Source of the DNA: Candidatus Obscuribacteraceae bacterium
Lineage (GTDB): Bacteria; Cyanobacteriota; Vampirovibrionia; Obscuribacterales; Obscuribacteraceae
Direction: 5' to 3'
DNA length: 64,000 nt
NCBI GenBank assembly: GCA_044226015.1
Contig: JBGAHS010000003.1
Coordinates: 512,001 to 576,000 of the forward strand
Below the pieces are notes generated by a model. That model saw nothing but the letters and a program-made list of their open reading frames with translations, did not search any database and was not told the origin of the DNA. The translations under genes and the position numbers were made by a program. Below, one piece after another: positions 10,152 through 52,471 of this stretch (its first letter is position 1; every line of letters starts with the position of its first letter).

Positions 10152-11189
10152 TTAGACCTTCGGCAGCGGGCAGGGTCCGCCGTTCATGCGCTCGAGCTGA
10201 TACACGCGGTCAGCAACCGGGGGGTGGGTCAGCTGGAGGTACTTCCAGAACGCGACGAGCTTCTGCCAGAGCGACTTCGGAGCCGGCTCTTCCGCGATGG
10301 CGTCGAAGATCGGATCGATGGTCATGCAGACGCGCATGACACGATACGCTTCAGCATCACGCCCCTTCGGACGGTGCTTCTCGACGTAAGCGACGAGCTT
10401 GAGCAGACCGCTGGCCAGGGCGCAGGGGTTGCCGGTGAAGTGCGCACCCGTGGCGTCGGCGCCGGATTCACGCGAACGGACCACGAACATCTGGATGAGC
10501 TTGGTCATCTGCTGGGTCGCCCAGAAGATGACGTACATCAGGATGTTCGAGACGATGGCCGGCAGCACGCGCTGTTCGACACGAATGCCGAGCAGACGCT
10601 TGAACCAGCTCAGCGTGCCGATCCACGCGCGAACACCACTGTCCACGACGATGAAGAAGAACGACGACATGATCGAGATGAGCGAGTTGATGCCGACGTC
10701 GTAGTTGGCGACGTGGCCCAGCTCATGCGCGAAAACAGCCTCGATCTCTTCGTCGGTCATACCGCACTCGAAGAGTCCGGCGGTGGCGGCGACGACAGCC
10801 TTGCGGTGAATCGGGCCCGTGGCGAAAGCGTTCGGCAGCGGGTTGTCCGAGATGTAGACCGGCGGCTTGAACTTGAGCCCCGACTTCTTCCACACGCGGT
10901 CGACGATCTCCAGGAGGCGAGCGTCGCGAGGGTTGTTGGGGTCGGCGGGGGTGCACTTCATGATGTACAGCGAGATCTTGTCGCTGAACCACCAGCCGGC
11001 GACGGTGAGAAGCGGGTAGGCGACCCAGAAGCCGAGCTTGAACTCGAACGACGACTGGAACAGGTAGAGGGCAGCGGTGATGAGGCCGCCCATCATGAGG
11101 AAGCCAGCCAGGGTCATGGCCCAGGTCTCCAGGCGTCGACGACCGATGCCAGGAAGCTCCTCAAAGGGGGTTACGCGATGACGAGACAT
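10152..11189 (-). CDS. htpX: M48 family zinc metalloprotease HtpX
   Basis: PNAFATG, AHELGH, SRESGAD, THPP motifs; AGGAG RBS before ATG 11189. Confidence 0.9.
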   Translation of the reverse strand: MSRHRVTPFEELPGIGRRRLETWAMTLAGFLMMGGLITAALYLFQSSFEFKLGFWVAYPLLTVAGWWFSDKISLYIMKCTPADPNNPRDARLLEIVDRVWKKSGLKFKPPVYISDNPLPNAFATGPIHRKAVVAATAGLFECGMTDEEIEAVFAHELGHVANYDVGINSLISIMSSFFFIVVDSGVRAWIGTLSWFKRLLGIRVEQRVLPAIVSNILMYVIFWATQQMTKLIQMFVVRSRESGADATGAHFTGNPCALASGLLKLVAYVEKHRPKGRDAEAYRVMRVCMTIDPIFDAIAEEPAPKSLWQKLVAFWKYLQLTHPPVADRVYQLERMNGGPCPLPKV

Positions 11190-11738
11190 AACAAATCTCC
11201 TCTTGTTGGTTGAGAGAACGTCTGCAAAACAGGTGCAAGACGCGAAGAAACAACTCAAGTCCACCCAACACAAAAGCCTGTCTTCCGCTACACAGCGAAC
11301 CGCTGAGTATTTAGAGCTAGAGAGACAGGTGCTTGAATGTTTTTACTGAGACGGTGTGTTCAGAAGGTGGATAGAGAGTAACGCCCACACCCTAGTACGC
11401 CCTGCTCTTGATAAGCAAGGGTGTGCGGACCTGCCCGCTTACCCCAGGGATAGAAATTGCTAATCTGGCATGGAATATCTAGCGAAACTGAGCCACTGCG
11501 GCGTCCTGCAATCTTTGCTTACATGTTGCCAAGATAGCGCTAACCTCGCTCTTCCTCTCAGGATCAAGCTTTTTGAGAGCCACTTAAGCAAAAAAATATC
11601 ACTAGGTCCCCTACGGGTCCTTCGCAGCCGGCCCCAGGTCAGGGGTCGCGACAGCAGACAAACGCGATCCTTCGATGCCGGCAGGATGATTTGCCCCGAG
11701 ATCCGATGTCGAAGGGAACGAATATCAGGAGCGAGTAA

Positions 11739-26958: not shown

Positions 26959-29900
26959 ATGTTCACTATCAAGTCCTCAAAAAGGGCAATATCTCCTGTT
27001 AAATCAGATTCGATGCAGCAAACCGAAATAGAAAACGACAAACTAAGCCGCTTTGGCGACTATACAGATTCATACTGGGAGTCAACCCAGGAAACGCTCG
27101 TAGGCTTGTATGCAAAACGGCATCCTGAAACGGGGCTGCCAATTGAAGATCTCAATGGAATTATTCATCGTGTCGCGTTTGCAAACGCAATCGCAGAACT
27201 CAAATACGCTCTGAGTCCAAGTGAGCTTGTAGCTCTCAGTTTCGAAGAAGCTATTATTCACCCATCCGTGACTGACTGGGCTAAAACCTTTGCAGAGTGC
27301 ATAGGCAAACAACGCTTCTGGGCAAACACCCCAGGGAACATAAATGCGGACCCCGAGATTTCCTTGAGAGTTCTGAAATACTGGGCGCACGGCCAACTTG
27401 CAGGCATGAAAGAGGATGAAATCTGGCTTCGTTCAGATGAGCTTTCACGCGCATACAGCAAGAAATCACTAAAAGTTGTTGATAAAGAGGGAAAGGCGAA
27501 AGGCTCGGAACATGAGCTTGCTATGGGCAAGCTCGCCACCGAACTTAAAGGAAAAGGTTGCCTCGCGGCTTGCGGTGTGGCCTTTGTCGAAGACAGCCTT
27601 GAAGGCATTCAAACGACTGCTGAAATTGAAGCGCTTGCAGCGAAAGCTGCCATGGGCATGGGCTTGAACACCTCAAGCTTACGTCCCTGGTCAAGCATAA
27701 TTTCTAATGGTGCTGCTGCTTCTGGACCAGATAGATTCTACGAAAAATCTATAGCAAAAGCCGTGGAAGCAGTAGCGCAGGGCGGTCGCAGAGGTGGCGC
27801 TTTGATTGAGTTGCGCAACTCAGATCATCCCGACATTTTGTTTTTTATCGAAAAGAAACGCCTGGTGCCGCGCCCGAGCCTGGCTCAAATATTCAAAGAG
27901 CTTCGTTTGCAAATAAAGCAGGCTCCTGGCGAAGCAAATATGGACTATAAGAAACGGTTACTTACTGAAGCAGAGCACCGTTTCGGGCAGCAATACGCAG
28001 AATTTGTCGAAAAACAAAACTATTTAAAGAACACCAACATCACCGTGCTTGCAATGCCCGGTTTTATGGATGCTGTGCGCGATGGGCTTTTTTACCCAGT
28101 CAAATTCAACAATCAGATCTGGAATGGTGCAGTTTACGATCCCCGAAAGCCTGTAAAAGACGAGAAAAGCGGACAGGTAAAAGTAAACAAACTAAGCAAA
28201 GAACTAGTCTACGAGGAATATTCCGTCGACTTGAATATTTACCCGGAAGCAAGAGAAGCAGCTCGCAGACTTGATTACGCTCAGGTCGAACTTAAAGAAA
28301 GCGAACTGACGGTGCGTGGTCATTTGTATGCGCCTGAAGTGTTCCAACGCATCATAGATGGTATGCAAAGCAGCGGAGAGCCCGGCATTGCATTCTACGA
28401 TCACGTCAATGCAGCAAATGCAAACAATCACATTTATGATTTGAACACCTGCAACCCCTGCGGCGAACAGTTTCTGCCAGCAGGAAAAGGTAGCGATGGC
28501 CGAGTTTATATGGGAACCTGCAACTTAGCATCGATGCACGCTGCGCACAAAGAACTTTTCAATGAAGACGGCAGTTTTAACACCCAGCGCATGAAAGACA
28601 TTGCGAAGATCATGCAACGATTCATGGACAATGTCTCAGATGTAAGCTGGTATCCAATTCCAGCACAAAATATGACCACTCGAATGGAGAGGCGCAACGG
28701 CGGTGGTTTTGCTGGAATAGCAGAATATCTGTCGCGACTCGGACTGGAATTTGGTGATTCCATGGCGCTTTCAAGCGTGGAAGAGCTCTACAAACAATTC
28801 ACGCGCGCCTCTGTTGAAGCATCTGAGCAACTGGCAAAAGAACGTGGTGTGTATCCCTTATGGGAAGGAAGCCGCTTTGCAAAACGCGGCTTGAAAGTAC
28901 GCAACTCCTGCATGACCAACAATGCTCCAACCGGAACCCTGGCGCAAGCACTGCAGACAAGCTGGGGCGTTGACCCCCATAACGGAATAGTTTTTTCACG
29001 CAAAGTGCGCTCACGTTACGTTGACTTTGTAGCACCAGGCTTCCGCGAAGCTATGGCTAAACACAAAGCATGGCCGGCGACAGAAGACGAACAGATTCAG
29101 CTGATGAAACGCATTCGCAGCAATAACAAATCTTGCAGAGGTGTTGATGCTGTTCCTGCGGCGGTGCAACGGGCATTTCCAATTCGAATTGAAATCGAGC
29201 CAGAAAAATATATCAAACATCTTGCAGCAATCCACAAGGGAGCTGAGGAGTTTCCCGAAGCCTTCAACTCCGTCTCAAACACCTGTTCAATCCCCGCGGA
29301 CATGAGCGACCAATCCATTGGCGAAGCCGTGATGCTGGCGTACGAACTGGGAGTTAAGGACGTTACCTTCTACCCTGATGGCAGCCGCCTCAGCCAACCA
29401 GTTGAACAAATTGCAGCTGATAAGATGGCACCAGAAGCTGATTTACTCTCACTTCTGGGGCACCAGGAACAACGCCCTATCAACATAGAAGAAACCTCTG
29501 GGCTCACATACAAGATTCGCGTTGGTTCTCCTGGCGGCGGTTCCACGCTGCATGTCAGCCTGAATCACGAGATAGATCATCCTGGTGAACTTGTAGAAGT
29601 CTATGCTCGCATGGGCAAACCAGGAGCCATCGAAGCAGGCTTGTTTGAAGCTGTAGGACGCCTCGCATCTGCGTTTTTGCAGTATGCAGCACAGTTTGGA
29701 GAATCAGAGCGGGCAATTGCTGAAAACACAATAGTTCAACAGCTAATCAATATTCAGTCTGGCTACCCGGCATTTTTCAAATTTGGCGATGCCAACAAAC
29801 CAGCTGTAATTCAATCGCCATGCGACGGGCTAGCTAAAGCCATACTTGAATATCGAAAAGGGTATAGCAAGATTGCCCGACGACTGACACCCACTGATAC

Positions 29901-30054
29901 CGCCAATGATGCCGGCGATCTATCTGCACCTACAACTTTTGTTGACGAAGAGGAGTTCAAAATGGGCGCCTGCAGTCACTGTGGGCAAGATGATTGGGCA
30001 AAAGCAGATGGCTGCTACATGTGCCAATCTTGCGGCTATTCGAAGTGCGGCTAG
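26959..30054 (+). CDS. nrdJ: class II (adenosylcobalamin-dependent) ribonucleotide reductase, divergent
   Basis: AQGGRRGGA, HPDI, SGEPG, CNPCGEQ, GTCNLAS, APTGT; C-terminal IQSPCD (TSCPD-like) and CxxC...DGCYMCQSCGYSKCG; no ATP cone; no adjacent beta subunit; NrdR box. Confidence 0.85.
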   Translation: MFTIKSSKRAISPVKSDSMQQTEIENDKLSRFGDYTDSYWESTQETLVGLYAKRHPETGLPIEDLNGIIHRVAFANAIAELKYALSPSELVALSFEEAIIHPSVTDWAKTFAECIGKQRFWANTPGNINADPEISLRVLKYWAHGQLAGMKEDEIWLRSDELSRAYSKKSLKVVDKEGKAKGSEHELAMGKLATELKGKGCLAACGVAFVEDSLEGIQTTAEIEALAAKAAMGMGLNTSSLRPWSSIISNGAAASGPDRFYEKSIAKAVEAVAQGGRRGGALIELRNSDHPDILFFIEKKRLVPRPSLAQIFKELRLQIKQAPGEANMDYKKRLLTEAEHRFGQQYAEFVEKQNYLKNTNITVLAMPGFMDAVRDGLFYPVKFNNQIWNGAVYDPRKPVKDEKSGQVKVNKLSKELVYEEYSVDLNIYPEAREAARRLDYAQVELKESELTVRGHLYAPEVFQRIIDGMQSSGEPGIAFYDHVNAANANNHIYDLNTCNPCGEQFLPAGKGSDGRVYMGTCNLASMHAAHKELFNEDGSFNTQRMKDIAKIMQRFMDNVSDVSWYPIPAQNMTTRMERRNGGGFAGIAEYLSRLGLEFGDSMALSSVEELYKQFTRASVEASEQLAKERGVYPLWEGSRFAKRGLKVRNSCMTNNAPTGTLAQALQTSWGVDPHNGIVFSRKVRSRYVDFVAPGFREAMAKHKAWPATEDEQIQLMKRIRSNNKSCRGVDAVPAAVQRAFPIRIEIEPEKYIKHLAAIHKGAEEFPEAFNSVSNTCSIPADMSDQSIGEAVMLAYELGVKDVTFYPDGSRLSQPVEQIAADKMAPEADLLSLLGHQEQRPINIEETSGLTYKIRVGSPGGGSTLHVSLNHEIDHPGELVEVYARMGKPGAIEAGLFEAVGRLASAFLQYAAQFGESERAIAENTIVQQLINIQSGYPAFFKFGDANKPAVIQSPCDGLAKAILEYRKGYSKIARRLTPTDTANDAGDLSAPTTFVDEEEFKMGACSHCGQDDWAKADGCYMCQSCGYSKCG

Positions 30055-30211: not shown

Positions 30212-31204
30212 ATGGACTCTAGTAAACAACAACAGAGCGGCGCAAAAGACTATTACTACATTCTCGGCATATCTCCGGATGCAAGTCCCCAGCAGATTCA
30301 AGCCGCCTTTCAGGAGCTGTATGACAAATACGGTCCTCATGTGACTTACACGAGCCAAGACTCCGACGCCATGGTGAAGCTCTACAAAGACATCACCGAG
30401 GCCTGGGAAACGCTGGGCGACCCGCAAAAGAGAGCAGAATACGACCAGGCGCAGATGCCACTTTTGCAAAAAAGTCATTTGCGAAACCTCTGGGGAAAGC
30501 TTACAGGAGCAAAAACTGGCGAAGAACCAAAACTAAAAGATGATCTTGCTGATACTCACACAAGCGTCGAGGTTACTCTGAGAGAAGCCGTCAAAGGATC
30601 ACGCAAGCAAGTCAAGGTCGAGGATTTCAAACCTTGTGAAGCCTGTCTCAGCAAAAAGCCAGTTGATCGAATCAAGTGCTTGCAATGCCATGGTTCCGGC
30701 CAGGTTAAAGCCGACCGGGTAGAAGTTTTGGAAATAGCTCCGGGAACCTTCGAAAAACAAGAGATTAAGCTACTCGGAAAAGGTCGCTATGATGCCAGGC
30801 TTCGTCGGCACGCAGATTTAGTCGTGGAGGTGCAATTCCAGCAGCACCCATTTTTTAGCGTTCACGGAAAGGATGTTTCCTGTACAGTTCCGGTCAATCT
30901 GTACGAAGCTATTCTCGGAGCCGAAATCGAAGCACCAACGCCGGCCGGCAAGGTAATGATGAAAATTCAGCCTCTCACACAGAGAGGACGCGTCTACCGA
31001 CTAAAAGGTCTGGGCTTGGGAGGCGGAGACTTGCTTCTATCCATAGAAGTAGTAATTCCCTCGCAACTGCATGCCGATGAAGTAGAACTCTTCAGAAGAT
31101 TGCAGAAAGTGTCCTCCCAACCTAACCCGAGGACAGATTTATTTGGCAAGTTGCAGGCCTACAATCAGGCTCAACAAATTCCTGGGTCAGATCAAAATAG
31201 ATAG
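30212..31204 (+). CDS. DnaJ/CbpA-like protein with non-canonical J-domain
   Basis: KDYYYILG...KYGPH...EAWETLGDPQKRAEYD; one Zn finger (CEAC/CLQCHGSG); C-terminal DnaJ domain (EAILGAEIEAPT, RLKGLG). Confidence 0.85.
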   Translation: MDSSKQQQSGAKDYYYILGISPDASPQQIQAAFQELYDKYGPHVTYTSQDSDAMVKLYKDITEAWETLGDPQKRAEYDQAQMPLLQKSHLRNLWGKLTGAKTGEEPKLKDDLADTHTSVEVTLREAVKGSRKQVKVEDFKPCEACLSKKPVDRIKCLQCHGSGQVKADRVEVLEIAPGTFEKQEIKLLGKGRYDARLRRHADLVVEVQFQQHPFFSVHGKDVSCTVPVNLYEAILGAEIEAPTPAGKVMMKIQPLTQRGRVYRLKGLGLGGGDLLLSIEVVIPSQLHADEVELFRRLQKVSSQPNPRTDLFGKLQAYNQAQQIPGSDQNR

Positions 31205-31820
31205 AAAATCGCATCATTCTAATGGGCCAATTGAAAATTGAAAAGGATTCGCTCGAAAGGTAGCCAAGCGCTAGCGGGCGGCTGCGAGATGACACAAAAA
31301 CACTGTAGCCAAGAGGTCCGAGGTTAGCGCTTTTGTTAAGCTTCCCAGAACACGCTCACGAGGCTGCGCTAAGGGTGAAAACCCTTACCATCAGGGAATC
31401 TTAGCGACTTGTAATAATTACAGGCCACGGCACTTACTACCCCAAAAAGCACCCCTTTAATAACTACCGTTACACAAGTCAAGATAAACATTTGCAAGGC
31501 TAGAGGGCGTTTCGTCAAAAGCTTCATCAGCATAGGATACGGGCTGTCAAGAGTTATGAGTGCAGGTCAAACAGCACACTAATGATCGTTGAACCCATAA
31601 CGGCGTATGCACTAGGGTCAGGTACACCCTTTTGTTCCCTCTAACCGCGAACCCACAAGCTTCTAACCCCGCAAAACAAAGAAGAAAACACCGAGAAGAG
31701 ACCCTGTTCAGTCCCGCGAACAAGAGTAGCTTCTGGCTTCTTTCCTAGCGATAGGAATTCCCAGCCGAACACATATCGTGAACGGCTCTTCTAACTTTCG
31801 CAAAAGCGAAGGAGACCAAC

Positions 31821-32750
31821 ATGACTACCAATGACAAGTCCATCCGGGACGGAGTGCTGCGCGCTATGTCCGTCAGCGCTCTCGGAACCCGCGAGAGTTT
31901 CTTAACGTATTCGGGCATCCTTCCGGTCAAGCTGCCGGACGGTACCCGATTCATCATCTACCCCGACACGCACATCCCGGCGCATCATCGGCGCCTCTTC
32001 TGGGCTGTGCTCCGTTTCGCTGCCGACTACAAGCCGCACGTGAACATCGCCATCGGCGACTGGCTCGACGTGTTCGCTCTCAGCCGGCATCCCAGCCAGC
32101 TCCGCGCGGTCAAGAAACCGCAGGACGAGTTCGACGAAGGCAAGCGCATCTGGGACGAGCTGATGGATGTCACAGGCGCTGCCTGGGGCTACATCATCGC
32201 CGGCAACCACGAAGACCGCATCTACCGCTTCCTGCAGGATCTCGCGCCCGCGCTCGGCAACATTGTTACGCCGAACAATCGCGAACCGCTGAACTTCCAC
32301 AACCTGATGGGTTTCACCCCGAAGGACAACACGACCTTCCTCTACGGCGTGGAAGAGCGTGGTGGTTTCGAAGGCGGCATGGTCATCAACAATGACCTGA
32401 ACCTGCACCACGGCATCATCGTGAAGCCGCAGCCCGGTGGTTCGGCGCAGGCCGACATGATGAAGTGGCAGTGGAACATCGGTCACGGTCACACGCACCG
32501 CATGGGCCACTCCGCCATCGGCAACCTCCGTTCGTACGAGTTTGGTCACCTGGTCGACCCCGACCACTCCTATCTCTCGTATGCGAAGTCGATGTTCCCG
32601 AACTGGGCTTTCGGTCTGGCCGCCGGCGTCGTTTACAACGGCAAGGTGCACGTCCAGCCGATTCCGGTCATCCCCATGTCCGATGAGACCGGCACGACGC
32701 GCCTCGGCTTCGTGTGGGATGGAAAGGTCTACCTCGAGTCGGACCGCTGA
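31821..32750 (+). CDS. calcineurin-like metallophosphoesterase (phage-type)
   Basis: All five metal motifs present: DTH, GDWLD, GNHEDR, HHG, GHTHR; AAGGAG RBS. Confidence 0.88.
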   Translation: MTTNDKSIRDGVLRAMSVSALGTRESFLTYSGILPVKLPDGTRFIIYPDTHIPAHHRRLFWAVLRFAADYKPHVNIAIGDWLDVFALSRHPSQLRAVKKPQDEFDEGKRIWDELMDVTGAAWGYIIAGNHEDRIYRFLQDLAPALGNIVTPNNREPLNFHNLMGFTPKDNTTFLYGVEERGGFEGGMVINNDLNLHHGIIVKPQPGGSAQADMMKWQWNIGHGHTHRMGHSAIGNLRSYEFGHLVDPDHSYLSYAKSMFPNWAFGLAAGVVYNGKVHVQPIPVIPMSDETGTTRLGFVWDGKVYLESDR

Positions 32751-32832
32751 TCCTTCTGCAGGCGGAAGTGGGGCATAACGCACGCTTCCGCCTGCCTGGT
32801 TTTTCATTCACAATTCACAAGGAGCTCAGACC

Positions 32833-33600
32833 ATGAGTACCAAACTCAGCAAGCGGTTCATTACCGCCGCGGCAGCCCTTCCTCTGGGATGGCCGCCGAA
32901 AAATCTGCTCGCGCAGAAAGAAATGTTCGTGAAGAAGGTCGTCTTCGACCTGCACGGACCGATCCTCGACTTCAACGGTCCCTTCCTCGCTCACCTCGCC
33001 GGCCTCTACAACAAGAAGCTGGACGTGTCGATGCTGGACCACTACAACATGGGCTACAACGTCGGCATGCCGATCACCCCGCACCAGTTCCAGCGTGGGC
33101 TGCAGAACTTCGGGCGTCTGGCGCACGGCGGCTTCCGAGACCTTCCGGCGATGCCTGGCATCGTCGAGGCTTTGAAGCAGATCCAGGACGCCGGCATCAA
33201 GGTGGAAATCTGGACCTATGCCCCTGGCGCCACCGACTACAGCCATGACACGCTGTTGTCGAACGGCACCGGCATCGCCCAGCTCGCCACGCTGGAGTGC
33301 ATCGAAGCTCTGGGCATCGTCAAGGACGTGCACAAGCAGGTTCGCTTCATCAAGCCGGAGGCGAAGGCTCCCGGCATGGCAGCGGAACACATCCCGCTCA
33401 TCGTCGAAGACCACCCCGTCACTGCTGTGACTGCGGGTGCGGCCTACGGCAACGCAGCGATCCTCGTTCCTGAGCACTACAACCGGGGCGTCAGCGCTCC
33501 TGGTGTTCTCAGGCTGGACAATCGGGCCGACCTGGCTCCCGCCATCATCAGCTTCTTCGCGGAGCTCGAGAAGGCGGGTTGTCTCATCGGCGGGCGCTAA
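32833..33600 (+). CDS. HAD hydrolase, 5'(3')-deoxyribonucleotidase (NT5C)-like
   Basis: VVFDLHGPILDF, FRDLPAMPGIVEAL, IWT, K, LIVEDHP, ILVPEHYNR; AAGGAG RBS. Confidence 0.7.
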   Translation: MSTKLSKRFITAAAALPLGWPPKNLLAQKEMFVKKVVFDLHGPILDFNGPFLAHLAGLYNKKLDVSMLDHYNMGYNVGMPITPHQFQRGLQNFGRLAHGGFRDLPAMPGIVEALKQIQDAGIKVEIWTYAPGATDYSHDTLLSNGTGIAQLATLECIEALGIVKDVHKQVRFIKPEAKAPGMAAEHIPLIVEDHPVTAVTAGAAYGNAAILVPEHYNRGVSAPGVLRLDNRADLAPAIISFFAELEKAGCLIGGR

Positions 33601-33732
33601 GCCCTTTTCTGAAGGTTCCGGCTGAGCTGTTTATCACGCGTATCCACGCAATAGCGTGCAGGCAGTCGCTTGCACGCTATCTACTTTTAACGCTCAGTCG
33701 GACCTGAGCACTACTCACAGGAGAAAATAGCC

Positions 33733-34953
33733 ATGGGACGACCCTTACGTAATGGCGGTAATTCCTTCCAGGTGGCGATTCGCCCTCTGGTCAAGACCTG
33801 CCCCGAAGAGACTGGCATCAACCGCCTCAGTCTGCCGGACGGCACCAAGATTCTCGTTCTCGCTCACGCGTACTTCCCGAGTCACGACCGTGAGCTTCAC
33901 ACCGCGATCACCAAGCTTCTCAAGTCCGAGAAGCCGGAGGTCACGATTCTTCTCGGTGGCATGATTCACGAGGAAGCCTTCAAGGCTGTTCTCGATGACG
34001 AAGACACCGTCACCAAGCTCACCAAGGCCTACGTGCCGCCGGAAATCCAGAAGATCATGGCGGAGCACACTGGCGTCGAGAAGCGCTTCCTCGAGCTGGC
34101 GAAGATGGGTGGACAGTACATCGCCGAGTTCCAGAAAGCTTCTGGCGGGCACGTGTACTACATCCCGTCTGTCACCGGCATGCTCCCGAACGAAGTCGAC
34201 ATCATGCGCTTCGTGCTCGAGCAGAAGGAACGCCTGGACGCCTGGGCGGACAAGCATCCGGATGAAGCCGTCATCGGCCCGGATATCCCGAAGGACTTCG
34301 CGACCTTCCTGGGACTGAACAGCAACCCGAACATCACGGTGCTGCCGTTCGGCTCGTCGCTGGTGGTCAACGACAGCTCGATGTTCGTCATCGGCGATTT
34401 CCGTCGTCGCAACCCGCTCACCGCAGCGCGCACGCAGGGCGCCAACTACCCCGACATGGATGTGGTCGTGGTCGGCTTCGACGGCAAGTCGTCGTCGGCT
34501 TACGAGACCTTCCCGCTGAACACGATGCCCGAGCCAACTCGTCGCTTCCGTGCCTACCACGAAGTGGGCAACCTCTTCGACCTCAGCAAGGGCATCGGCT
34601 ACCTGCGCAACTACGACCTCCGGGCCAAGGGTGTGGTCTACGGAGAAGTTCGCAGCGGACGCTATCACGCCTGGTCGGTTCCGGCTCTGGCTGGTAACGA
34701 CGGACGGCGTGCGTTCAACATCTACAACCGCATCTACCAGGAAGATGACTTCAACCCTGGCATGCGGAACATCGCGCTTCCGACTCCGGCTTCCGTCAAC
34801 GGACTGGCGAAGAAGCCTGCTTCGGCTGCGGCTCCTGCGAAGGTCACCGCGAAGAAGCCTGCTTCGGCTGCGGCTCCTGCCAAGGTCACCGCGAAGAAGA
34901 AGCCTGCCAGCAATGCCACCAAGGCGAAGCCGGGCAGCAAGAAGAAGAGCTAA
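33733..34953 (+). CDS. inactive metallophosphoesterase paralog with histone H1-like Lys/Ala/Pro tail
   Basis: Colinear with the 31821 protein but metal ligands replaced; AKKPASAAAPAKVT repeats; AGGAG RBS. Confidence 0.75.
   Translation: MGRPLRNGGNSFQVAIRPLVKTCPEETGINRLSLPDGTKILVLAHAYFPSHDRELHTAITKLLKSEKPEVTILLGGMIHEEAFKAVLDDEDTVTKLTKAYVPPEIQKIMAEHTGVEKRFLELAKMGGQYIAEFQKASGGHVYYIPSVTGMLPNEVDIMRFVLEQKERLDAWADKHPDEAVIGPDIPKDFATFLGLNSNPNITVLPFGSSLVVNDSSMFVIGDFRRRNPLTAARTQGANYPDMDVVVVGFDGKSSSAYETFPLNTMPEPTRRFRAYHEVGNLFDLSKGIGYLRNYDLRAKGVVYGEVRSGRYHAWSVPALAGNDGRRAFNIYNRIYQEDDFNPGMRNIALPTPASVNGLAKKPASAAAPAKVTAKKPASAAAPAKVTAKKKPASNATKAKPGSKKKS
34807..34905 (+). repeat. 42-bp coding tandem repeat, 2 copies plus a partial third
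   Basis: gcgaagaagcctgcttcggctgcggctcctgc(g/c)aaggtcacc. Confidence 0.9.
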
Positions 34954-34979
34954 TCCCTAGCCCAGCGGGACACTGGCTA

Positions 34980-35075
34980 CGCACATCCCGGGTGCCGGCA
35001 AGCAAAAGCAGAAATGCTAATGCTTGTTCGGCGCCCGGGATCTTGTGCGGGGATTCAGCTCTTCTTTCTTTTTTG
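34980..35075 (+). terminator. long imperfect hairpin followed by U-rich tract
   Basis: CGCACATCCCGGGTGCCGGCAAGCA...TGCTTGTTCGGCGCCCGGGATCTTGTGCG then TCTTCTTTCTTTTTT. Confidence 0.6.
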
Positions 35076-35179
35076 CCTCGCCTTCTACTATTAGCCTTAG
35101 TATCTCACAAGGCGAAAAGGGTGAACACTTTCACTGCCGAATGAAATGATTCAACAGCGGCTGCCTGCTGAAAGCTAGC

Positions 35180-35626
35180 TCAATACCGGCTTTCGTCACA
35201 CTGCAAACACATGAGCCCGAGCGATCTCCATCCTTGAACAGCCGTCTCTCGATCATCAATCACAAGCCAGGGCTCAAATCCGTGCTTGTGCATAAGGCTC
35301 AGCATTTCACTTTTCACAGTTCCATCCGCACGACGGTCAGAGTCTCCGCGCAAATATATCTTCTCGTACGGCACATCATATTTGCCGAGCCAGGCTTCTG
35401 TCGCCTTTCGAAGCCTCTCCGGCCGTCCGCTTGCAATAAGAATGGCATTGTTTTTTGCAAGCTCTTGCGCCAGTCGAACTATTTGCTGACGTGGCAAGTC
35501 TTCAGCACAAGCAGCAAAAAACCGCTCCCAATCTTTTTTCTGTCGCTGAACAAAATGCAGCCTGTGAGTGCAATCTGCTAGAGTTCCATCAACATCAAAA
35601 ATTACAGCAGCCTTTCTCATTTCCAC
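35180..35626 (-). CDS. HAD phosphatase resembling the 3'-phosphatase domain of phage polynucleotide kinase/phosphatase
   Basis: IFDVDGTLA, SGRPE, LRGDSDRRADGTVK, VIDDR...WRSLGLMCLQ; no kinase domain. Confidence 0.8.
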   Translation of the reverse strand: MEMRKAAVIFDVDGTLADCTHRLHFVQRQKKDWERFFAACAEDLPRQQIVRLAQELAKNNAILIASGRPERLRKATEAWLGKYDVPYEKIYLRGDSDRRADGTVKSEMLSLMHKHGFEPWLVIDDRETAVQGWRSLGLMCLQCDESRY

Positions 35627-49665: not shown

Positions 49666-50994
49666 TTACTCGCCCGCGAGCATCATCTTGTTGATCTTGA
49701 GGGTCGGCGAGTTGACCGACGACCTGAACACCAAATCGTTGCCCACCGCATCGATGCCTTGCAGCATACCGATGATGTGGCCAGCAACTGTGATTCCTTG
49801 CACCGGGAACGCGAACTTGCCGTTCTCGATCCAGATGCCGGAAGCACCAACCGAGTAATCCCCGGTGGTGGCGTTGAAACCGAGCCCCGAAGCGCTGGTC
49901 AGGTAGAGGCCGCTTTCGACCGAGGCGATGAGCTCCTCGACCGGCGTCTCACCATTCTGCACGTAGAGATTCGAGGTGCTGCCGCCGTTCGGAGTCTCGC
50001 CGAGCTTGCGCGCGGAATAGATGCCGAGGAGGTAGCACTCCAGAGTGCCCTTGTCGACGATGACGCGCTTGCGCGTGGGCAGACCCTCGGAGTCGATCGG
50101 ACGCGAAGCCAGACCGCCGATGATATGGGGGTCATCGACGATGGTGATGAGCTTCGACGCGACCTGCGTGCCACGCTTGTCCACCAGGAAGGACGACTTC
50201 CGGTAGATCTGCGCACCAGAGGCGGCGCCGACGAGCTGGCTGATGAGCCGAGCAGCGGACTGCGGGTCGTAGATGACCGGGCAGGTCTGCGACTTCACAC
50301 GGCGCGGGTTGAGCTGCCGAACGGCATGCTCAGCCGCGATGCGACCGATTTCATCCGCCGACTGCAAGGTCGACAGCTTGCGGCTCGAAGAGCCCCAGCC
50401 GCCAATCTGCATGACTCCATCGCCCGCGGGGTCCGAGGCGATGACGGCGGCCGACAGCGAGCAGGCGCTGGTCTCGTAAGCGACCGAGAGCCCACGCGAA
50501 TTCGCCCGAACGATGATGTTCATCTCGTCGGAGAAGCCGCAGCCGCGGGAGTTGGCGACGCGCTTGTCGGCTTCCATGGCAGCCTTCTCGGCAGCCAGAG
50601 CGAGCTCGACCTTCTTCTCGACCGGAAGCTTGGAGGCCTCGTCATCGAAAAGTCCGAGGTCCGGCACGTTGTTGGAGTAGGCGGAAGCATCGGCCAGACC
50701 TGCGGTCGGGTCTTCCGGCGCAAGCTTGGCGACTTCGATGGTGTCCCCGATGAGCTTCGTCAGCACGGACTGATCGAGGTTGCTCGTGGAAATGGAGGCG
50801 TGCCGCTGACCGACGAAGGCGCGGAACTCGAGCTCCTGGGTCTGTGCACCCTGAAGTTCCTCGACATTGCCCACACGAACGCCGACCTCGACGGACTCCC
50901 CGACGCCGATCGTGACTTCACAGTCCGTCGCGCCGAGGCGTTTGGCTTCAGCGACCACGAAATCCGCGATCGCTTTCAATTGCTGCTTATTCAT
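49666..50994 (-). CDS. pmbA: TldE/PmbA family protein
   Basis: YRKSSFL, DDP...DSEG, TGDYSVGASG...IENG...PV; GAGG RBS before ATG 50994. Confidence 0.9.
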   Translation of the reverse strand: MNKQQLKAIADFVVAEAKRLGATDCEVTIGVGESVEVGVRVGNVEELQGAQTQELEFRAFVGQRHASISTSNLDQSVLTKLIGDTIEVAKLAPEDPTAGLADASAYSNNVPDLGLFDDEASKLPVEKKVELALAAEKAAMEADKRVANSRGCGFSDEMNIIVRANSRGLSVAYETSACSLSAAVIASDPAGDGVMQIGGWGSSSRKLSTLQSADEIGRIAAEHAVRQLNPRRVKSQTCPVIYDPQSAARLISQLVGAASGAQIYRKSSFLVDKRGTQVASKLITIVDDPHIIGGLASRPIDSEGLPTRKRVIVDKGTLECYLLGIYSARKLGETPNGGSTSNLYVQNGETPVEELIASVESGLYLTSASGLGFNATTGDYSVGASGIWIENGKFAFPVQGITVAGHIIGMLQGIDAVGNDLVFRSSVNSPTLKINKMMLAGE

Positions 50995-51034
50995 AGCATT
51001 GTCCTCTTTTGAGTTAGAAGGTGAAAGGAGCGGA

Positions 51035-52471
51035 TTAGTTGGCGGAACCGCCAACCGTAACCTTGTCCATGCGGATGGACGGCATGCCGACGCCGACGGG
51101 GACGCCCTGGCCATTCTTGCCGCAGGTGCCGATGCCGGTGTCCAGAGCCATGTTGTTGCCCACCATGGACACATTGTGAAGCGACTTCGGCCCATTGCCG
51201 ATGAGCGTCGCACCCTTGACCATGCGCGTGAGCTGACCATTTTCGATCAGCCACGCACAAGTAGCCGTGAAGGTGTAATCACCGTTGGTGATGTTCACCT
51301 GTCCACCGCCAAAAGTCTCCGCGTACAGTCCGTACTTGACCGAGCGGATGATTTCGTCGTGAGTGTGTTGCCCGCCCGACATGAACGTGTTCGTCATGCG
51401 GGGCATGGGGACGTGCCGGTAGCTCTCGCGCCGACCGTTGCCGGTGAGCGCCGCCTTCATGAGGGTGGCGTTCTGCCGGTCCTGCATGTAGCCGACGAGC
51501 CGCCCGTTCTCGATGAGCGTCGTGGTGCCGGTCGGCGTGCCTTCGTCATCGAAGTTGAGCGAGCCACGGCGATTCGCCATGGTGCCATCATCGACAACCG
51601 TGACGAGCGGCGAGGCGACCTGCTGGCCCATCAGGCTCGAGAAAGCCGACGAACCCTTGCGGTTGAAGTCACCTTCCAGCCCGTGCCCGACCGCCTCGTG
51701 GATGAGGACGCCCGGCCAGCCGTTGCCCAGCACAACCGTCATCTCGCCGGCGGGAGCCGCCACAGCGGACAGCATGTCCACCGCCTGCTTCGCAGCAGTG
51801 TTGGCGTGATACTTCCACATGGAGTCCGCGGCGAGCGCCGAGAATTCCATGCGACCACCGCCACCAGAGCCGCCGTTCTCACGACGCTCACCTTCAGCAG
51901 CGATGCAGCCGACGTTCAGGCGCACAAGCGGGCGCCGGTCGTGGAGCAGACCACCAAGGCTGTTGGCGATGATGATCTCGTAGTCCTCGGCGGTGATACT
52001 GACCGAGACGTTCTCGATGCGCGAGTCGTAGGCACGAGCTTCGGCATCGATCTTGGTGAGCAGCGCAATGCGATCGAGCAACCCGACGGTGGTCGGCGAG
52101 ATGCCGATGTCGTAAAGGTTCAGGGTCGGCGGATTCGCAGCGACCGGCTCGGTCACGACGCCGTTGGAGTAGTTCGCGATGGCACGAGCGATGGTCGCTG
52201 CCTTGCGAAGGTTCTCGATGGTGACGTAGTCGGTGAACGAGTAGCCGACCTTGTCGCCGATGACGACGCGGACGCCAGCGCCATTGACGATGTCGCGCGA
52301 GGTGGACTTGAGCTGCTGCTGGTCATAAGCGAGCGATTCGCTGCTACCAGCCTGGAAGTAGATGTCACAGTAGGCGCCCGGCTGACCATGAATGGCCTGA
52401 GCCATGACGCTTTCGACCTGATCGGTGCTGAGACCGAAGAGACGATGAAGATCTTTTGCAACGTTACGCAT
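51035..52471 (-). CDS. tldD: TldD metalloprotease
   Basis: GWPGVLIHEAVGHGLEGDFNRKG, TGNGRRESY, PMPRMTNT, GTCGKNGQGVPVGVGMP. Confidence 0.95.
   Translation of the reverse strand: MRNVAKDLHRLFGLSTDQVESVMAQAIHGQPGAYCDIYFQAGSSESLAYDQQQLKSTSRDIVNGAGVRVVIGDKVGYSFTDYVTIENLRKAATIARAIANYSNGVVTEPVAANPPTLNLYDIGISPTTVGLLDRIALLTKIDAEARAYDSRIENVSVSITAEDYEIIIANSLGGLLHDRRPLVRLNVGCIAAEGERRENGGSGGGGRMEFSALAADSMWKYHANTAAKQAVDMLSAVAAPAGEMTVVLGNGWPGVLIHEAVGHGLEGDFNRKGSSAFSSLMGQQVASPLVTVVDDGTMANRRGSLNFDDEGTPTGTTTLIENGRLVGYMQDRQNATLMKAALTGNGRRESYRHVPMPRMTNTFMSGGQHTHDEIIRSVKYGLYAETFGGGQVNITNGDYTFTATCAWLIENGQLTRMVKGATLIGNGPKSLHNVSMVGNNMALDTGIGTCGKNGQGVPVGVGMPSIRMDKVTVGGSAN

Follow-up and report, generated by a model that had tools for sequence, protein, structure and literature searches.

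Metallophosphoesterases of the PHROG 221 family are known from actinophages, with Bxb1 gp47 and A10ZJ24 Gp48 as directly assayed members. The gp47 protein is needed for replication of the phage's DNA, and its gene sits among primase, helicase, and polymerase genes. A limited 3′ exonuclease activity of gp47 was reported; it was weak, and contamination was not excluded by the authors (PMC11795197). The accessible part of the study on A10ZJ24 Gp48 describes degradation of linear, plasmid, and genomic DNA, toxicity, a requirement for D10, D41, and H175, and an alignment with the Bxb1 protein (PMC12287305). In the accessible portion of an EMBO Rep introduction, gp47 is presented as lacking phosphoesterase activity and D29 Gp66 as cleaving monoesters, diesters, and cAMP. 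The archaeal PolD subunit DP1, a proofreading exonuclease, and the inactive eukaryotic polymerase B subunits (PDB 5ihe, 3e0j) represent an active phosphoesterase and a retained, inactivated descendant. The PUA-Calcineurin-CE-HAD system joins a calcineurin-like phosphoesterase and a HAD protein with a DxDx(T/N) motif in one locus with nucleotide-directed chemistry, according to the available part of its preprint (bioRxiv 10.64898/2026.01.15.699771). The NT5C-type 5′(3′)-deoxyribonucleotidases (PF06941) and PHROG 420-like phage HADs have an Asp in motif I, a Thr in motif II, a Lys in motif III, and an acidic pair in motif IV.

Here, three adjacent genes were analyzed in a 64-kb window, meaning the whole stretch of DNA under study; they encode an intact metallophosphoesterase (gene 1), a HAD phosphatase (gene 2), and a catalytically dead paralog of the gene 1 product (gene 3). 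The parts of this trio are familiar, and their combination appears to be undescribed; a literature search covering few subscription papers gave no paper on Melainabacteria together with metallophosphoesterase and none with 4 of 5 pseudo-enzyme terms. Gene 1 resembles the PHROG 221 phage enzymes (PMC12287305, accessible part; PMC11795197) in length of alignment, PHROG assignment, and the residues required in Gp48. In contrast to them, it is chromosomal, appears vertically inherited, has an N-terminal extension of approximately 40 residues, and has as its partners an inactive paralog and a HAD protein, neither of which was found next to the phage genes in the 35 viral loci examined. With DP1 and the B subunits, which gave the best structural matches of the gene 1 and gene 3 models, the trio shares the theme of an active phosphoesterase retained together with a dead descendant; it differs in its identity of about 13% or less, its single-domain proteins, the adjoining of active and dead forms in one operon, and the lack of a polymerase partner among 140 proteins of the same codon class. 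Compared with PUA-Calcineurin-CE-HAD as described in the available preprint text, the calcineurin-like enzyme and the HAD protein recur in one locus, whereas a PUA sensor is missing (no Pfam PUA match), the locus is fixed and vertical, a dead-paralog gene is added, and the HAD motif is DxH. Gene 2 keeps the residues of all four NT5C motifs, yet it differs from that type by a His in place of the second Asp, a score under the Pfam cut-off, and an N-terminal extension.

Layout of the locus and properties of the three proteins

The three ORFs share the same orientation on the forward strand of the window at 31821–32750 (gene 1, 309 aa), 32833–33600 (gene 2, 255 aa), and 33733–34953 (gene 3, 406 aa), and each is preceded by AAGGAG or CAGGAG 6 to 9 nt 5′ of the ATG. 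Their GC content is 0.60 to 0.61 versus 0.47 to 0.49 in the flanks, with GC3 values of 0.83, 0.82, and 0.79 for genes 1, 2, and 3, respectively, whereas the two genes upstream have values of 0.46 and 0.49. The first-pass annotation, made from the letters of the DNA alone, had described three co-oriented, GC-rich genes with strong ribosome-binding sites, in full agreement with these data. The spacer between genes 1 and 2 (fold of 32751–32832, −32.2 kcal/mol, z −3.79) contains a GC-rich hairpin followed by a short U-run (32758–32795, + strand) that may be terminator-like or mRNA-stabilizing, a putative function in either case. Between genes 2 and 3, the terminator-like scan located a 13-pair hairpin within a longer stem (33651–33680, + strand; fold of 33601–33732, z −6.15). 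A long hairpin with a subsequent U-rich run 3′ of gene 3 (34980–35053, + strand, limits approximate; fold of 34954–35080, −61.1 kcal/mol, z −5.52) is probably a terminator. The genes, separated by strong hairpins, may or may not be co-transcribed. A promoter scan gave one site versus 1.2 expected. Short contigs of one RNA run fell on gene 1 (31723–31966), gene 3 (34251–34668), and the upstream reductase gene (27097–27267), which is no demonstration of transcription; one DNA run, which may be the source sample, tiles the window with few differences.

Both upstream neighbors on the + strand belong to the ordinary codon class. The DnaJ-like gene (30212–31204; Pfam DnaJ and DnaJ_C; GC3 0.49) is conserved and marks the locus, probably without belonging to the module. 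Two genes upstream of gene 1 lies a ribonucleotide reductase gene (26959–30054; Pfam Ribonuc_red_lgC, 9.5e-68, and TSCPD; GC3 0.46), whose architecture reads as that of a class II enzyme; it is a frequent but inconstant neighbor, and in several loci the 6 kb upstream do not contain it.

Gene 1 was assigned to the gp47/PHROG 221 family of metallophosphoesterases. PHROG 221 was its best library match (E 1.1e-28, residues 43–287), the same family that Bxb1 gp47 itself matches at 4.5e-116, and profile–profile alignment (hhalign) with gp47 ran end to end (99.5%, 235 columns, 28% identity). The calcineurin-like metal motifs recognized in the first-pass annotation are all intact (five motifs), and each of the eight ligands D49, H51, D80, N129, H130, H197, H224, and H226 was present in 32 of 32 orthologs. 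Gene 1 thereby retains a complete two-metal site. Residues D10, D41, and H175 of gp47, which coincide in number with those required in Gp48, correspond to D49, D80, and H224 of gene 1, as counted on the gene 1–gp47 alignment without the Gp48 sequence itself. The structural model (pLDDT 84.9) comprised a single phosphoesterase domain covering nearly the whole protein. Its best solved fold was DP1 (5ihe; Z 15.5, rmsd 3.2, 221 aligned), 2.7 Z above the next entry; SbcD and Pol delta B subunits were also among the best folds of the gene 1 and gene 3 models, and YfcE, Rv0805, and 5′-nucleotidases matched gene 1 at Z 10 to 12, 3 to 5 Z under DP1. Sequence searches of solved structures with genes 1 and 2 gave no significant match (best E 0.058 and 0.27). 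By analogy with its phage relatives, gene 1 probably encodes a metal-dependent DNA phosphodiesterase or nuclease. A crude hydropathy scan of the module proteins revealed neither a signal peptide nor a membrane helix.

Matches to gene 1 were found in 999 phage records, 791 of them from mycobacteriophages, and its nearest outside relatives were viral. The PHROG 221 and gp47 profile matches thus bear out, for the ancestry of gene 1, the earlier suggestion of a domesticated phage module; the kinship to Bxb1 gp47 and A10ZJ24 Gp48 had been overlooked there. A phage origin of the whole trio was rejected: the gene 2 profile matched in 0 of 35 viral loci, the gene 3 profile only cross-matched gene 1-like ORFs, and no phage records were obtained for gene 2 or gene 3. 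The pattern scan of viral and genome collections was run for gene 1 only, from a closer 11-sequence alignment. Among 129 listed neighbor ORFs of 21 viral loci, 68 were annotated (helicase, primase, resolvases, nucleases, methylases, virion, and lysis genes); HADs and nucleotidases were absent at E ≤ 1e-8.

Gene 2 was identified by its motifs and its NT5C and PHROG matches as an NT5C-like HAD phosphatase with a D39-x-H41 motif I, T128, K178, and E192-D193. HAD motifs I to IV (D39, T/S128, K178, E192, D193) were found in 32 of 32 orthologs; instead of the canonical DxD, motif I has a His at position +2 (DxH) in 31 of 32. A DxD motif I occurs in the distant members L039, L040, L184, and L185, and also in L024. 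The score of the single protein against NT5C was weak (E 0.054, 13.8 bits, cut-off 24.8), but 8 of 19 family members matched NT5C at E ≤ 0.1 (best 7.4e-5) and 14 of 19 matched PHROG 420, so that the earlier assignment as an NT5C-like protein stands. Since DxH departs from the canonical HAD motif, the enzyme may be slow or altered. Atlas neighbors of gene 2 were nucleotidase clusters (score 0.85 to 0.87), which is to be taken as a lead only.

The core of gene 3 (33733–34782, + strand, approximately residues 1–350) is a paralog of gene 1. Pairwise BLASTP was firm over 72 N-terminal columns only (29%, E 3e-8), and hhalign profiles extended the alignment to 272 columns (probability 99.5%, E 8.6e-23). 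The motif pairs proposed in the first-pass annotation fall in register there. In 32 of 32 orthologs no Asp was found at the D49 and D80 positions and no His at those of H51, H197, H224, and H226; at the H130 position a His is present in 5 orthologs (column register approximate for all of these positions). This supports the postulated pair of an active and an inactive phosphoesterase. The place of gene 1 H197 is taken by a conserved, basic GDFRRR motif with two Arg in 32 of 32 orthologs. The gene 3 model (pLDDT 80.1) has the phosphoesterase fold, with DP1 (Z 13.8, rmsd 3.5, 215 aligned) and a Pol delta B subunit (Z 13.1) tied as best matches; Foldseek gave 110 matches at E ≤ 0.001, those listed being calcineurin-like. 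Gene 3 forms a sister clade to gene 1 (support 0.90), its dN/dS was approximately 0.15 to 0.25 versus three relatives, and its profile had no match in a draw of 300 other genomes of the phylum. As judged from these alignments and substitution ratios, gene 3 is shown to be a duplicate under purifying selection that has lost its metal ligands.

The C-terminal tail of gene 3 (34783–34953, + strand) contains a two-copy repeat and has 56 residues with 14 K, 17 A, and 7 P, and pLDDT below 50 over most of residues 365–406 predicts disorder. Across the 32 orthologs the ends were basic in 11, acidic-then-basic in 10, acidic in 6, and short or neutral in 5. The Lys/Ala/Pro tail itself, first described as H1-like, is present; its role as a defining tether was not supported, as charge and length vary (21 of the 32 ends are basic and 6 are acidic). 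Basic tails were no signal of the codon class as a whole (2 of 139 same-class versus 30 of 4932).

Conservation and codon class in the Obscuribacterales

The Obscuribacterales are uncultured, non-photosynthetic relatives of cyanobacteria. Of 44 related loci, 36 carry all of genes 1 to 3 in one and the same order, and contig ends cut the remaining 8; the order was also seen in 6 of 7 more distant loci. The neighborhood conservation search proposed in the first-pass annotation shows that the three genes are a fixed unit in this order, always travelling together. The trio was syntenic and intact down to 30% identity. The DnaJ-like gene was found upstream in 41 of 44 loci; in genome G354 it lies approximately 150 kb from the operon. 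Patristic distances of genes 1, 2, and 3 correlated at 0.90 to 0.93, and the module trees were largely congruent with that of the DnaJ-like flank (0 to 2 supported conflicts among 15 to 19 splits), so that the trees fit a vertical inheritance of the trio alongside a flanking host gene. Profile matches were obtained in 59 of 107 genomes of the order. Gene 1 was matched in 55 of 60 genomes with the DnaJ-like gene, and 3 of the 5 that lacked a match have a contig end no more than 400 bases away; in G016 (8 contigs, 92% complete), the flank is present and an operon match absent. As the dnaA control was present in 88 of 107 genomes, a missing origin contig does not by itself explain where the operon is absent; its absence tracks the local flank. 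A recent horizontal island or prophage would be patchy and mobile with virion genes nearby, and instead a fixed locus with congruent trees was found.

The operon belongs to a second codon class of approximately 170 SD-led genes with GC3 near 0.8 and avoidance of A-ending codons, which in three genomes clusters within about 600 kb of the replication origin. Relative to the flanks, GC3 was raised in nearly every locus, including an AT-rich genome (0.37 to 0.42 versus 0.25). GC-richness is thus the mark of a genome-wide gene class and not of a recent import or a foreign island, which had not been recognized in the first-pass annotation. Usual high expression as the source of the excess was rejected, ribosomal protein genes being of the ordinary class. 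Among 140 scanned same-class proteins, 72 matched Pfam, with 16 peptidases and 20 proteins of lipid breakdown, acyl transfer, or fatty-acid transport (raw counts for this class only); no polymerase, primase, helicase, capsid, or terminase was found. A shared codon class alone is no proof of co-expression. Type IV export was not supported (no VirB4-family match in G000, which is 92% complete; three VirD4-like matches; no signal peptides). The literature search, with its coverage of few subscription papers, returned nothing on Obscuribacter codon classes among the papers listed.

Candidate functions of the trio

Tentatively, and with somewhat less than an even chance of being right, we favor an old, vertically inherited, cytoplasmic module, domesticated for the breakdown of DNA to nucleotides and nucleosides, with gene 3 as partner or brake. 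Gene 1 would cut DNA as a metal-dependent phosphodiesterase or nuclease like its phage relatives, and gene 2 would remove phosphate from the released (deoxy)nucleoside monophosphates, its His possibly acting as general acid/base where the second Asp would otherwise do so. Gene 3 would pair with gene 1. It would then either hold DNA through the conserved arginines, together with a basic tail in most lineages, or restrain a toxic nuclease. It is conceivable, with less weight, that the module is switched on together with the approximately 170 same-class genes degrading protein and lipid, in a bulk-digestion state; the cells might then be feeding on prey or necromass, starving, or lysing as a step of development. 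This reading is based on the action of gp47 and Gp48 on DNA, the DP1 fold, the nucleotidases as nearest families of gene 2, the conserved gene order, the correlated gene distances, and the degradative same-class genes without replication genes among them. Against it count the non-uniform activity of the gp47 family, the weak exonuclease result for gp47, the gene 1–gp47 identity of only 28%, the DxH motif of gene 2 with its NT5C score under the Pfam cut-off, and the strong hairpins between the genes. The reading must also presume, for a cytoplasmic DNase, either that foreign DNA can enter or that the cell has a death programme. In a speculative and rather improbable extension, the trio would be the DNA-digesting arm of an undescribed life stage of the Obscuribacterales. 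In it, the approximately 170 genes of the second codon "dialect", rich in peptidases, lipases, and beta-oxidation enzymes, would have a compartment or cell of their own for expression, either a daughter compartment trapping the origin or a prey or host cytoplasm receiving the origin region; there, a phage-derived host-killing nuclease, restrained by its dead twin up to its release, and the DxH nucleotidase would turn the chromosome into nucleosides.

An accessory role in replication or repair is unlikely, with gene 1 as an editing or end-trimming exonuclease in the style of DP1 or Mre11, gene 3 as a scaffold like the inactive polymerase B subunits, and gene 2 as a dNTP-pool sanitizer. It would account for DP1, SbcD, and Pol delta B subunits as best folds, for the requirement of gp47 in phage DNA replication amid primase, helicase, and polymerase genes, and for the ribonucleotide reductase two genes upstream, and inactivated DP1 homologs offer a precedent (PMC7544198, accessible part). 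However, no polymerase, primase, or helicase was met in the 140 same-class proteins or noticed among the locus ORFs listed, the reductase gene has the ordinary codon use and is inconstant in its adjacency, genes 1 and 3 are single-domain without the DP1 OB domain as judged from length and model, and at least one genome (G016) has the flank and no operon match.

The signalling branch of the first-pass annotation, by which gene 1 opens cyclic nucleotides or 2′,3′-cyclic phosphates, gene 2 removes the remaining phosphate, and gene 3 acts as an allosteric nucleotide-sensing subunit in small-molecule or RNA-end processing, is improbable. The calcineurin-like fold serves many such activities (YfcE, Rv0805, 5′-nucleotidases), cAMP cleavage was reported for D29 Gp66 (EMBO Rep introduction, accessible portion), and a conserved basic patch lies near the dead site of gene 3; yet those folds scored below DP1, no linked cyclase, ligase, or sensor gene was found in the neighborhoods examined, and gp47 and Gp48, the two family members considered here with direct assays, act on DNA, so that the kinship of gene 1 to these phage proteins favors DNA over signalling nucleotides.

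Doubtful to a still greater degree is anti-phage defense by nucleotide depletion or abortive DNA destruction, with gene 3 as a sensor or lock replacing the PUA domain. The combination of calcineurin-like enzyme and HAD equals the effector pair of PUA-Calcineurin-HAD in the available preprint text (bioRxiv 10.64898/2026.01.15.699771), and toxicity is possible in the gene 1 family, as for Gp48. PADLOC gave 0 matches for the three proteins and 20 gene 1 orthologs (PADLOC-DB 2.0.0, a library that may or may not hold PUA-Cal-HAD), as had been expected in the first-pass annotation, NCBIfam gave none for the trio proteins, and gene 1 is one domain without a PUA fusion. Defense systems are usually patchy and mobile in distribution; the trio is single copy at one locus with largely host-congruent trees and no sensor gene, which speaks against the defense or counter-defense role first envisaged. 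A recent or decaying phage remnant without host function is highly improbable, and the data on conservation go most of the way to refuting it: a GC content and codon use that depart strongly from the mean of the genome, the viral closest outside kin of gene 1, and the matches in only 59 of 107 genomes would agree with it, but the trio is syntenic and intact to 30% identity, dN is well below dS, the GC3 excess persists in nearly every locus, and operon absence tracks absence of an ordinary flank gene.

On present evidence, the operon is a well-conserved set of familiar folds with predicted roles. If the favored DNA-breakdown reading is true, a bacterial order would have domesticated a phage nuclease family that serves phage replication and host-genome destruction. 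Duplication would have given it an active and a dead form, and it would work together with a nucleotidase whose active site is non-canonical. The gene 1/gene 3 pair would offer a direct test of the role of a widespread, poorly assigned phage family and of pseudo-enzyme control. The origin-centered second codon class with its mostly degradative enzymes provides a testable clue to the lifestyle of the Obscuribacterales, and may outweigh the operon itself in importance.

Architecture and inheritance of the operon

The operon comprises the phosphoesterase gene 1 (31821-32750), the DxH-HAD gene 2 (32833-33600) and the dead phosphoesterase paralog gene 3 (33733-34953), all on the + strand and each preceded by a strong SD motif. 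The patch has a GC content of 0.60-0.61 versus 0.47-0.49 around it, with GC3 values of 0.83, 0.82 and 0.79 for genes 1, 2 and 3 versus 0.46 and 0.49 in two upstream genes. The first-pass annotation, which had described three co-oriented, GC-rich genes with strong ribosome-binding sites, was thus accurate in coordinates, strand, SD motifs and GC content. Co-transcription of the trio is likely, as judged from the gene spacing, but a strong hairpin lies 3' of every gene (fold z −3.8, −6.2 and −5.5 for genes 1, 2 and 3). Immediately downstream, Pfam identified a PNKP-type HAD phosphatase (35180-35626, − strand) and a nucleoside deaminase (35568/35709-36149, + strand). Both have ordinary codon usage and are common to one close relative only among the loci compared; they therefore probably lie outside the module.

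Record titles or synteny placed 44 of the 62 genome loci compared in the Obscuribacterales lineage. The trio was complete and in order in 36 of the 44; the other eight are cut off by the contig edge, either inside genes 1-2 or shortly behind them. Six of seven further distant loci carried it as well (the seventh lies near a contig end), so the neighbourhood search proposed earlier did find the three genes together in other genomes. The 18 loci from other taxa contained a gene 1-like ORF alone. A DnaJ-like gene (30212-31204, + strand) precedes the operon in 41/44 loci. Among 107 genomes of the order Obscuribacterales, profiles matched gene 1 in 59, gene 3 in 58 (53 judged true gene 3 from the match table) and the DnaJ-like flank in 60; gene 1 was matched in 55 of those 60, and in three of the other five a contig ends ≤400 bases from the flank. 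One genome of the order (G016) has other genes at the operon site and no operon match, and has probably lost the operon. When 300 further genomes of the phylum were searched, the gene 3 profile matched none, and the trio was not seen in the viral loci and phage records searched. Protein searches retrieved 49 relatives of gene 3 and 65 of gene 2, the named ones all from this lineage. Across 32 loci, the trio gene trees correlated with each other at r 0.90-0.93 and with the flank at 0.74-0.78, with 0-2 supported conflicts against the flank per 15-19 splits. The GC excess over flanking genes is kept in nearly all loci, an AT-rich genome included; the GC-richness is therefore maintained and is not a relic of recent import.

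Two very divergent operon copies (L182 and L183, from genomes G419 and G420) differ in that gene 3 carries a long helical insertion and the GC3 excess is small (0.52-0.62 vs 0.51); they still lie directly after the DnaJ-like gene.

The intact phosphoesterase, its dead paralog and the HAD protein

Gene 1 matched Pfam weakly (Metallophos, E 0.055) and PHROG 221 with E 1.1e-28; 999 phage records matched, mostly actinophage metallophosphoesterases. Its family profile aligned with Bxb1 gp47, itself assigned to PHROG 221, over 235 columns (99.5%, 28% identity). The best fold match of the predicted model (pLDDT 84.9) was DP1, the proofreading subunit of PolD (Z 15.5, rmsd 3.2, 221 aligned), followed by SbcD (Z 12.8), and a viral structure library yielded phage phosphoesterases (best E 1.8e-19). 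Eight catalytic residues are invariant in 32/32 orthologs. Bxb1 gp47 is described as required for phage replication, with limited 3' exonuclease activity for which contamination was not excluded (PMC11795197). A10ZJ24 Gp48 is described as a toxic phosphodiesterase; it breaks down DNA in linear, plasmid and genomic form and depends on D10, D41 and H175 (PMC12287305). By profile alignment and residue count, D10, D41 and H175 of gp47 correspond to D49, D80 and H224 of gene 1; the residues needed by Gp48 appear to coincide with those of gp47, the two being equated by residue number. As the introduction of PMC12287305 describes gp47 as lacking phosphoesterase activity and D29 Gp66 as cleaving cAMP, the phage family of gene 1 is not uniform in activity.

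With BLASTP, the firm part of the alignment between genes 3 and 1 was confined to the N-terminus. Profile-profile comparison extended over 272 columns (99.5%, E 8.6e-23), confirming the end-to-end alignment claimed at first pass. The expected phosphoesterase fold was recovered in the predicted model (pLDDT 80.1), whose best matches, DP1 (Z 13.8) and the Pol delta B subunit (Z 13.1), were tied. The reported loss of ligands holds for the whole family, in which the metal ligands are absent; two arginines beside the position of the lost H197 are kept in 32/32, and dN/dS versus three relatives was ~0.15-0.25. A phylogeny was built from 104 sequences, with three near-duplicate viral loci omitted: 20 of gene 1, 7 of the 18 of gene 3, 11 close representatives, 2 phage references and 64 that were distant or viral. 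In it, support was 0.999 for the gene 3 clade, 0.978 for gene 1 with its close representatives and 0.90 for the two as sisters. This sister position suggests that gene 3 arose by duplication after the acquisition of gene 1, its long branch calling for caution. The C-terminal tail is predicted to be disordered and differs between family members: among 32 tails, 11 are basic, 10 acidic-then-basic, 6 acidic and 5 short or neutral. The H1-like tail of the first reading thus stands insofar as a basic end is common, but given this variation it cannot be an essential tether.

In gene 2, HAD motifs I-IV are invariant among 32 orthologs, and the second Asp of motif I is replaced by His in 31/32; DxD occurs in few members, mostly distant. 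The proposed NT5C likeness was borne out in part: NT5C is among the nearest families (8/19 members, E≤0.1), but gene 2 lacks two of its membership features. PHROG 420 matched 14/19 members, and the atlas neighbours were nucleotidase clusters (score 0.85-0.87), a lead only. We infer that gene 2 may act like a nucleotidase.

A divergent operon branch (L039, L040, L184, L185) has a canonical DxD in the HAD. The genome carrying L040 (G020, contig C531) has two operon copies, one beside small unrelated genes, representing a second copy or bin contamination.

A second codon class around the replication origin

In the genome containing the window (G000, window on contig C6), 168 of 5315 called genes, the operon among them, form a second codon class with GC3 0.79 versus 0.47 and 4.5% versus 27% A-ending four-fold codons. 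SD-like motifs precede 103/145 class genes versus 60/218 neighbours, and intergenic GC is 0.533 versus 0.436. Ribosomal protein genes belong to the ordinary class. Class blocks lie at C6 ~395-850 kb, C1 1.14-1.21 Mb, C8 714-735 kb and C9 1-36 kb, with examples inside the window at 10152-11273 and 49666-52471. From 177 ORFs near or above threshold, 140 were scanned with Pfam (omitting 3 of the operon, 23 by size and 11 outside the stretches covered) and 72 matched. By counts among these Pfam-matched members alone, the class is dominated by peptidases (16) and by lipid-breakdown, acyl-transfer or fatty-acid-transport proteins (20). Others include an EEP-family nuclease/phosphatase, MoxR/VWA/DUF58 sets and PrkA-DUF444-SpoVR; no polymerase, primase, helicase, capsid or terminase was found among the 140.

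Three alike clusters (C1 1.163-1.179 Mb, C6 649-658 kb, C9 6.8-14.4 kb) contain acyltransferase, patatin, enoyl-CoA hydratase, AMP-binding and acyl-CoA dehydrogenase genes; for the C9 copy this was read from the starts of the sequences alone. At C10:356333-358584, 18 tRNA genes, many for A-ending codons, form a compact array reminiscent of the inducible tRNA arrays of cyanobacteria.

The second class surrounds the replication origin. The skew minimum (C6:817812) lies beside dnaA (C6:816854). In hand-chosen sampled stretches (L195-L234) of two single-contig genomes from other genera (G375 and G354), class genes numbered 29/121 and 23/161 at ≤600 kb from dnaA and 0/157 and 0/146 outside; one stretch per genome had been selected to hold PrkA, and without it the near-dnaA counts were 21/110 and 18/147. 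Against a simple origin rule, the end of C8 and the start of C9 in G000 carry 36 class genes that precede a skew maximum, and 7/21 class genes of the two single-contig genomes have an ordinary-class best match in G000.

Across the order, dnaA was found in 88/107 genomes and the DnaJ-like flank in only 60/107; blocks near the origin were often absent from bins rated ≥90% complete.

Proposed function and alternatives

Each part of the trio belongs to a known family or is a close variant of one. The mostly open-access papers searched did not describe the combination, in which an active/dead pair and a DxH HAD form a host operon passed on by inheritance. Ancestry, folds, residues, linkage and inheritance are demonstrated. 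We favour, at somewhat less than an even chance, a cytoplasmic module breaking DNA down to nucleosides. Gene 1 would cut DNA, gene 2 would then dephosphorylate the products, and gene 3 would bind gene 1 as a DNA-holding subunit or as a brake, the trio being deployed together with the degradative class genes.

A replication or repair accessory would follow the DP1/B-subunit precedent described in PMC7544198, but no polymerase partner was found, and this role is rather improbable. Processing of cyclic nucleotides or RNA ends by the trio is unlikely. Even less expected is a defence function like that of PUA-Calcineurin-CE-HAD, as described in bioRxiv 10.64898/2026.01.15.699771: the trio is without PUA, its locus is vertically inherited, and PADLOC gave no match, as the first-pass annotation had anticipated. 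That the operon is a remnant is very improbable.

Beyond the cytoplasmic breakdown module, a wider setting may be considered. Vampirovibrio, a predatory relative in the same class, is proposed in PMC4451040 to digest prey with exported hydrolases, but G000 yielded no VirB4-family match and a crude scan detected no signal peptides in the three trio proteins. It is conceivable, though doubtful, that the trio would serve to digest DNA within a programme that is centred on the origin and takes place in a separate cell or compartment.
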